A stretch of 64,000 nt of DNA, from the sequence record PQ249395; one strand, 5' to 3'. The stretch's first letter is position 1. Each line of letters starts with the position of its first letter. A program made the translations under genes and the position numbers. A model generated the notes under the pieces. It was given only the letters and a program-made list of their open reading frames with translations, had not been told where the DNA came from and searched no databases. Origin of the DNA: Escherichia phage Pu-Krd-SF1. Positions 986 to 1,627 of the stretch are shown here, in pieces.

Positions 986-1258
986 ATGAAAACGTATCAA
1001 GAATTTATTGCTGAAGCTGCTTTTAACGAAAAAGTAAAAATTAGCAAAGCTGTCAAGACTTTGATTGCTGACATCAATTACCTATATGATATTGATTTAA
1101 CTGACTATGTAACAGTTGGTAACAAACGTAACTTTTTCGTGTTTGACATCTCTGAACTTGGCCAGAATCAAATTAACAACATTGAGCGTTTTGCTAATGA
1201 TAAGGGTCTTCGTCATGAGTCAGCGGGTTATAAAAAATACGCAATTTATTTAAAATGA
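986..1258 (+). CDS. internal protein (capsid-targeting N-terminus), positional ipI
   Basis: N-terminus MKTYQEFIAEA; SD ggagaataaaATG; ORF-track start at 968 trimmed. Confidence 0.7.
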   Translation: MKTYQEFIAEAAFNEKVKISKAVKTLIADINYLYDIDLTDYVTVGNKRNFFVFDISELGQNQINNIERFANDKGLRHESAGYKKYAIYLK

Positions 1259-1290
1259 GTTTACTTTTAAATAGGGTTGTGGTACTATTA
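1259..1290 (+). promoter_or_regulatory. T4-type early promoter
   Basis: GTTTAC -35 and GGTACTAT -10. Confidence 0.6.
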
Positions 1291-1318
1291 TCTCATCAAA
1301 ATTAATTAGGAAAATAAA

Positions 1319-1627
1319 ATGAAAACATTTAAAGAATTTATCAATGAAGCGGCTGCGCCAAAGACATTCGTTATTAATACTCAGACGAGTCTTGACGATG
1401 AGTATGCAGAGGCAATTCTGAAGTCACTTGCTAAGAACGGCGTTGAAGTAATCGCCTCGGACTTTAAGAAAGGGGCTTCCGAGATGTTTATTTCTATAAC
1501 TAAAGGATCTAAAGCTAAAATCAAATCATCATTCGGAGTTGCTCGTACCGATCAAATTGACAATCATGACTTTAAACAAACTGGCGTTAAACGGCAGAAC
1601 ACAATTGCATCACGCGGAATAAAATAG
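1319..1627 (+). CDS. internal-protein-like protein (capsid-targeting N-terminus)
   Basis: N-terminus MKTFKEFINEAA resembles the IP targeting sequence. Confidence 0.6.
   Translation: MKTFKEFINEAAAPKTFVINTQTSLDDEYAEAILKSLAKNGVEVIASDFKKGASEMFISITKGSKAKIKSSFGVARTDQIDNHDFKQTGVKRQNTIASRGIK

Follow-up and report, generated by a model that had tools for sequence, protein, structure and literature searches.

The DNA analysed here, a 64,000-nucleotide (nt) stretch of Escherichia phage Pu-Krd-SF1 (PQ249395) that we call the window, holds seven genes whose products begin with the same ten-residue tag, the capsid-targeting sequence (CTS) known from the internal proteins (IPs) of phage T4. We judge it probable that the window carries the IP cargo system of the T-even phages, in which proteins are loaded by the tag, processed by the prohead protease gp21 and injected, and we tentatively infer that gp61.1, the product of the seventh gene, enters the prohead too. 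Five of the genes, with open reading frames (ORFs) starting at 986, 1319, 8984, 9744 and 10071, are ordinary IP genes in the two classical, recombination-prone loci. The remaining two lie elsewhere: an unannotated ORF at 4715, and gene 61.1 at 55644. The phenomenon itself has long been known, and an original prediction made from the letters of the window alone read it correctly, although that reading was mostly not new.

The first ten residues of IPIII are enough to load a protein into the T4 head; targeting depends on positions 4 and 7, cleavage by gp21 on positions 8 and 10 (PMC9026906, a review). A passage in PMC3012670, citing Repoila 1994, describes the T-even internal proteins as a highly diverse set in which the tag alone is conserved. 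More than 30 variants have been described, in two small loci with flanking early-promoter and stem-loop elements (PMC2839356). So far only T4 Ip1, Ip2 and Ip3 are shown to inhibit a host defence; each acts on a GmrSD type IV restriction enzyme of its own, that of Ip2 being the GmrSD enzyme of ECOR21 (PMC12373910), and infection of ECOR17 requires IPIII (PMC9391042). On this model the CTS decapeptide would bind the scaffolding core, so that the tagged protein is built into the prohead, and gp21 would then cut after Glu10 in the [I/L]-x-E motif. The freed body would stay in the head with the DNA, be injected at the next infection and act on early host defences, for which GmrSD inhibition is the best precedent. 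We would expect this standard pathway for all six genes that lie in the first 12 kb, and packaging, cleavage, injection and anti-restriction activity are what we infer for every gene in this phage.

The evidence for the system begins with the tag. The motif MK[TM][YF]xEF[IL]xE occurs seven times in a six-frame translation of the window, against 2e-5 occurrences expected from residue frequencies, and all seven ORFs lie on the + strand (Table 1). Its core, [YF]xEF[IL]xE, also has seven matches (0.22 expected), every one at these N-termini, and a looser MK[TMSA][YFW] scan of the window yielded no additional candidate with the EF core. The seven ORFs named in the original prediction are exactly those recovered from the six frames; only its last start, 55645, was one base off. 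In ORF 9744 the tag is present only if the first ATG is used. All seven products have an aromatic residue at position 4, Phe at position 7, Ile or Leu at position 8 and Glu at position 10. These are the residues reported for IPIII, and the earlier interpretation of the signature as capsid-targeting is correct. Nor is the similarity restricted to MKTY, which had been named beforehand as the finding that would speak against that interpretation: the match spans ten residues and includes the cleavage motif.

Beyond the tag the proteins are mutually unrelated, as had been claimed: BLAST matches between any of the seven end after 10-20 residues, and none of them has a match in Pfam or NCBIfam. At the DNA level, the first 33 nt of the genes are identical pairwise at 21-30 of 33 positions (64-91%), and a direct-repeat family (D2) in the window corresponds to six of the seven tag-coding starts. 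The residues for targeting and cleavage are kept in the protein although codons vary at positions 3, 8 and 11. Directly after the predicted cut, at P1', the tagged ORFs other than gp61.1 have Ala in five cases of six and Ser in the sixth.

The five genes in the classical loci are all annotated as internal head or virion proteins in the database record. ORF 986 belongs to phrog_7673, 'internal head protein' (E 3e-54), and its predicted mature product has 80 residues and an isoelectric point (pI) of 8.9. Its homology to T4 covers the region upstream of ipI and ends once the first 22 nt of the coding sequence (CDS) are passed. A second copy of this 67-nt T4 ipI cassette (upstream region with those 22 nt) stands before ORF 1319 at 94% identity (window 1275-1340). 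ORF 1319 matches phrog_2667 (E 5e-41), has a predicted mature product of 92 residues and pI 9.7, and is named 'internal head protein 7' in one related record; a PDB sequence search with it found no relative. In many other phages the match is limited to the 32-67 nt round the start codon, and the genes there are called ipI, Ip4 or Ip5. Distribution of the loci is patchy, with two IP-locus queries covered to at least 80% in 48 of 529 and 68 of 466 matching records.

In the second locus, ORF 8984 matches phrog_3499, 'internal head protein' (E 1e-46), and its predicted mature product has a pI of 6.3 and three further [LI]xE motifs. A relationship of this product to the gp22 scaffold was considered and rejected; the match is weak (E 0.005 in a six-protein set) and goes with a coiled-coil composition. 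The 8984 ATG overlaps the stop codon of gene e (ATGA). T4 homology of gene e ends 11 nt before that stop codon (window 8970-8990), and its product ends in TWKAYI here versus TWDAYKNL in T4; the homology break and the overlap together place a recombination junction inside the end of e. Gene denV (window 9288-9737) has 78.7% DNA identity to T4 denV, compared with 93-97% for the flanking genes, and appears to be a divergent allele shuffled along with the IP cassettes. ORF 9744 matches phrog_2667 only in part (residues 1-43, the first half of the family; E 3e-11). The product of ORF 10071 (phrog_7857) shares 93% of its 100 residues with T4 IPII in a full-length alignment (E 3e-66), and by this homology the ipII copy here likely inhibits GmrSD. 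The original prediction had held that only some of the genes align with IPI, IPII and IPIII. IPII is indeed present; homologues of IPI and IPIII are not, since none of the five classical-locus ORFs aligns with either T4 protein beyond the tag. Its proposal that the bodies may be injected effectors such as restriction inhibitors would fit the literature, by analogy with the three T4 proteins that each block a GmrSD enzyme (PMC12373910).

ORF 4715 sits between rnaC and e.8, in a 658-bp insertion (4632-5289) compared with T4; both classical loci are about 3 kb away. Its predicted mature product has 178 residues, a pI of 9.5 and a net charge of about +9. The ORF belongs to phrog_2280, a family of unknown function, and is found at full length in 163 phage records, among them a split copy in RB69; every annotated copy is called a 'hypothetical protein'. 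An AlphaFold2 model is all-helical and of low confidence (pLDDT 65.6). When this model was compared with viral models in a fold search, the only matches were members of its own family and a single uncharacterised protein of a Yersinia phage, from which no function can be read, and a PDB sequence search gave no match. Because of its tag, charge and patchy distribution, we think that ORF 4715 probably adds one more internal protein, at a third site.

The seventh gene is of a different kind. The product of ORF 55644, unannotated here, is 94% identical to T4 gp61.1, which begins MKTFKEFIKE. It consists of the CTS-like decapeptide, a module that resembles the N-arm found in gp23 (the major capsid protein), and a Lys/Glu tail; cleavage at the tag would give an acidic peptide of 44 residues with a Lys-rich tail. 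Residues 2-38 align without gaps to T4 gp23 residues 57-93, with 15 of 37 identical and the scissile bond in register (FIKE↓DM in gp61.1, FLTE↓AE at the gp23 cleavage site). The Smith-Waterman score is 75, against a shuffle mean of 29 (standard deviation 4.4), and none of 5000 shuffles reaches 75. In addition, gp23 residues 61-101 score 48.9 bits with a hidden Markov model of the gp61.1 family, built on 52 diverse modules. When a T-even gp61.1 profile was run against 1.84 billion representative proteins, 51 relatives and no full-length gp23 came back, so the link between the two proteins rests on the targeted comparisons. Pfam gave no match to gp61.1 at E up to 0.1. As in the gp23 family (IPR010762), gp61.1 has a gp21 cleavage site followed by N-arm sequence; the HK97-fold body of about 500 residues is absent from this 54-residue protein.

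The gp23* region in question, residues 66-105, is disordered and faces inward in the unexpanded head and is thought to contact the scaffolding core. The head-length mutation sites A66D, A94V and G97S lie in it, and in the expanded head it forms the N-arm and N-fist, which help to bind Soc (PMC9546572). Just ahead of the cut, gp23 residues 59-65 (F-x-x-F-L-x-E) match the tag at positions 4, 7, 8 and 10, and RB49 gp23 does likewise (AFGGFIAE↓AE). A role for gp61.1 as a mimic of the Gol peptide of gp23, which lies at about residues 93-122, was rejected; the gp23 similarity ends near residue 101. Within-phage and between-phage comparisons of gp61.1 and gp23, made by eye for T4 and RB49 only, gave 10/16 and 11/16 within a phage versus 10 and 8 across, too little to judge co-evolution.

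At 50% identity the gp61.1 family has 51 representatives. Phages of different genera carry it, in 1,226 records that include Klebsiella, Acinetobacter, Aeromonas and Cronobacter phages. At each locus inspected, the primase gene follows it directly or after no more than two small ORFs. Vibrio phage phi-pp2 is also listed with a 159-residue gp61.1 gene beside the primase, shared with KVP40 and T4. Among short forms (50-70 residues), 16 of 26 begin with an aromatic-xx-hydrophobic N-terminus. Long forms (120-165 residues) place an N-terminal domain of about 100 residues (phrog_2086) before the module; this domain has no Pfam match, and its conserved W-x-A-x-x-x-G-I-I-D motif left no sign in gp61.2 on comparison by eye. 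An [LIVMF]xE stands just before the module in 47 of 52 members, and the tail is rich in Lys/Arg in nearly every one. Several distant members carry a second tag-like stretch after that tail (KKTFDEFVKG, KSFLEFDSK, NFKQFVEGLE), and relatives of about 250 residues have another domain after the second stretch. These may be fused neighbouring genes or tandem tag-module units. Some homologues are called 'major capsid protein' or 'major capsid domain-containing protein' via IPR010762 (MW388002.1 27342-27818; MN882349.1 11599-11775). That name is misleading: the homologues have 54-160 residues and share the N-arm segment only. Our literature searches found no paper discussing gp61.1 function. The original prediction had grouped the seventh gene with the other tagged genes, but gp61.1 is unlike an IP in its behaviour: it is conserved across genera, its predicted product is an acidic peptide, and its body is paralogous to the gp23 N-arm.

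Tag-like starts also occur outside the window. RB49 gp61.1 begins MIGFKQFVEE, close to RB49 UvsW.1 (MISFKRFLVE↓AA), and RB49 Alt has a similar segment, MIESFEKWLLTE, 9 residues into its annotated N-terminus; the first residues of gp61.1 follow the lineage, because these three RB49 segments are alike. T4 UvsW.1, the C-terminal part of UvsW, begins MLLEFKQFLYE↓AS. UvsW.1 is not known as a head protein. Either there is more head cargo than has been recognised, or the loose motif is unspecific.

Table 1. Tagged genes and associated signals in the window (↓, predicted gp21 cut)
Feature	Position	Strand	Description
Internal protein gene	986..1258	+	90 aa, MKTYQEFIAE↓AA; first of ipI locus, directly after 57B
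Internal protein gene	1319..1627	+	102 aa, MKTFKEFINE↓AA; second of ipI locus
CTS-bearing ORF, unannotated	4715..5281	+	188 aa, MKTYAEFLTE↓AA
Internal protein gene	8984..9265	+	93 aa, tag then Ser at P1'; T4 ipIII position
Short internal protein gene	9744..9929	+	61 aa from first ATG, MKMYQEFIVE↓AD; between denV and ipII
ipII	10071..10373	+	100 aa, MKTYQEFITE↓AR
Gene 61.1	55644..55808	+	54 aa, MKTYKEFIKE↓DMVAGD...; between adfA (61.2) and primase gene 61
Early-promoter cassette	921..949	+	Upstream of ORF 986; repeat families, promoter scan, GTTTAC positions
Related cassette copies	1252-1299, 1633-1680, 9260-9307, 10369-10405		Repeat families D3, D5, D6
Further early-type promoter	10010-10040		Upstream of ipII; promoter scan
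Exact T4-type late promoter TATAAATA	9708..9715	+	36 nt upstream of ORF 9744, also upstream of ipII
rnaC terminator	4601-4624		7 nt upstream of the 5' edge of the 658-bp insertion; terminator scan
Hairpin	5286..5312	.	3' edge of the 658-bp insertion; terminator scan

Expression signals differ between the tagged genes. The ipI-locus genes (986 and 1319) have early-type promoters only, and exact TATAAATA late promoters occur also at 8465 and 8478, upstream of e (exact-match scan). T4 ipI, ipII and ipIII belong to an early RNA, late protein class, and T4 61.1 shares the early RNA class with them (PMC9697503 supplement); early transcription is therefore compatible with packaging. For ORF 4715 the nearest promoter candidate is a one-mismatch GATAAATA located 37 nt upstream of the start codon.

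The window comes from a Tequatrovirus. Over its first 12 kb it has 100% identity to Escherichia phages Pu-Krd-SF5, SF6 and SF7, T4-like phages that originate from piglet faeces, and the + strand corresponds to the direction of T4 early transcription. Genes in the first part run 1, 57A, 57B, ipI locus, tRNAs, segB, e.8 to e.2, nudE, e, ipII/III locus and vs genes; in the later part the order is 41, dmd, 61.4, sp, 61.2, 61.1 and 61. An HNH endonuclease ORF (2281-2889) sits where T4 has tRNA-Gln (window 2277-2892), with T4 homology stopping 9 nt into that tRNA and restarting at its end. Compared with T4, trna.3 is also absent, and the record gives an additional tRNA-Tyr at 3406-3492. Gene 57B (452-907) is labelled 'RNA ligase' in this record and in RefSeq T4, and anti-CBASS protein Acb1 in other related records.

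Several observations weigh against a complete IP system of seven cargo genes. IP genes have been said to be absent outside the two loci (PMC2839356), and ten further ip genes did not inhibit further GmrSD systems (PMC12373910). The 8984 product is not basic, and with its three extra [LI]xE motifs it may be degraded instead of retained. The start of ORF 9744 is ambiguous: the GenBank record uses the second ATG (9750), which stands 9 nt from the Shine-Dalgarno sequence, a better spacing than the 3 nt of the first ATG, and this makes the full tag on its product uncertain. ORF 4715 follows a terminator, and a promoter scan gave it no recognisable promoter. Other objections concern gp61.1, whose conservation in more than a thousand records is unlike the patchy accessory IPs, whose long-form relatives lack an N-terminal tag, and which has Asp at P1', unlike the Ala or Ser of the other tagged ORFs here. 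No TATAAATA lies within 400 nt upstream of 61.1. T4 61.1 falls in the early RNA class, and its product was undetected in a whole-cell time-course proteome (class NA; PMC9697503 supplement). The surrounding region is a proposed anti-toxin island, whose other genes have been called 'attractive anti-toxin candidates' (PMC9391042).

How the shared N-termini arose can be weighed against these points. That they arose by chance, or as a by-product of A/T-rich starts that favour translation, is virtually impossible: several other ORFs in the window also begin MK, but the excess of seven matches over expectation and the ten-residue length of the match refute this, and the core EF[IL]xE is found nowhere else in the six frames. 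A more serious proposal, though still an improbable one, is that the common 5' end is mainly a recombination linker of promoter, Shine-Dalgarno sequence and tag DNA, and that some of the seven genes are passengers or decaying remnants. Such a model was proposed earlier for the IP loci (PMC2839356), and several features here agree with it: repeated cassettes flank the IP genes, the matches in other phages are confined to the start-codon region, breakpoints of T4 homology lie inside tag-coding DNA (window 1007 and 1340), and ORF 9744, with its ambiguous start, has only the first half of its family. However, the targeting and cleavage residues are preserved in the proteins even where the codons differ, and ORF 4715 and gp61.1 have the tag without the promoter cassette. 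The linker and packaging are moreover compatible, not exclusive.

For gp61.1 the choice is between head and cytoplasm. We tentatively favour the head, although at less than even odds: gp61.1 would enter the prohead and be cut at Glu10↓Asp11, and the 44 residues left, basic at their tail, would mimic the N-terminus of gp23*. A broader proposal, which we regard as rather unlikely, makes gp61.1 an unrecognised, widely conserved prohead component of T4-like phages and gp21-cut gp23* mimic, and has the IP tag derive as a transferable copy from the stretch F-x-x-F-[IL]-x-E↓A that spans the cut in the capsid protein; gp61.1 would then enter the core via its tag-like N-terminus, its gp23-like segment or both. 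It is also conceivable, if somewhat doubtful, that gp61.1 is not head cargo and works early and in the cytoplasm, as part of the dmd-tifA-sp-adfA counter-defence island. It would act there as a decoy or competitor of the gp23 N-arm, aimed for instance at a host sensor or chaperone that recognises capsid protein, and its tag would be inherited from gp23 and unused for targeting. The position of 61.1 beside adfA (61.2), its early RNA class with no late promoter nearby, its absence from the proteome and the long forms with a domain instead of the tag all agree with the cytoplasmic role. So does the presence of the key tag residues in gp23 59-65, from which gp61.1 could have inherited the motif. 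Nonetheless, the early RNA class also holds ipI-III, and the gp61.1 decapeptide is nearer to the IP tag (8/10 residues identical to IPIII; 27/33 nt identical to ipII here) than to gp23 56-65. The tag-like start is kept by short forms in distant lineages, and [LIV]xE is kept in 47 of 52 members with no obvious use outside the prohead, where reviews place active gp21.

In general terms the finding adds little: one more IP combination in one more T-even phage. Its practical use is a set of candidate anti-restriction proteins (986, 1319, 4715, 8984 and 9744) that can be set against the expanding range of GmrSD systems. What is new is the existence of tagged genes beyond the two classical loci, and whole-genome motif scans may reveal more injected cargo of this kind. 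New too is the composite gp61.1, a conserved gene of T4 itself that joins the tag to a capsid cleavage site and a copy of the N-arm. This arrangement suggests, from the sequences compared, a link between the targeting tag and the capsid cleavage region, and a possible origin of the tag. If prohead entry is correct, the gp61.1 peptide would mimic the gp23* region that touches the core, has an effect on head length and is later the N-fist that binds Soc, and gp61.1 would be an evolutionary link between the IP tag and the pre-cleavage segment of the capsid protein.

Among known systems, the closest are T4 IPI-III, which share with the genes described here the N-terminal tag, the [I/L]xE motif, small size and loci next to 57B or between e and vs.8. 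They differ in that IPI and IPIII are replaced here by unrelated bodies, and in local order, which is e, ipIII, ipII, denV in T4 and e, Ip (8984), denV, Ip (9744), ipII in the window. The polymorphic T-even IPs (Ip4, Ip5, Ip7 and others; Repoila et al. 1994) share PHROG families, the two loci and early-promoter flanks with ORFs 986, 1319, 8984 and 9744; ORF 4715 and gp61.1 differ from them in carrying the tag outside the two classical loci. From T4 gp24 and Alt, too, gp21 removes a short N-terminal propeptide with Glu at its end, and these propeptides are considered tag-like (PMC5694885; PMC9026906). Their sequences differ, and the two proteins serve the head as structural parts or enzymes instead of being small variable cargo. 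Finally, the N-terminal region of gp23, with its Glu65↓Ala66 cut and the N-arm and N-fist of residues 66-105, is matched by gp61.1 with the scissile bond in register, although gp61.1 has no HK97-fold body and ends in a Lys-rich tail.

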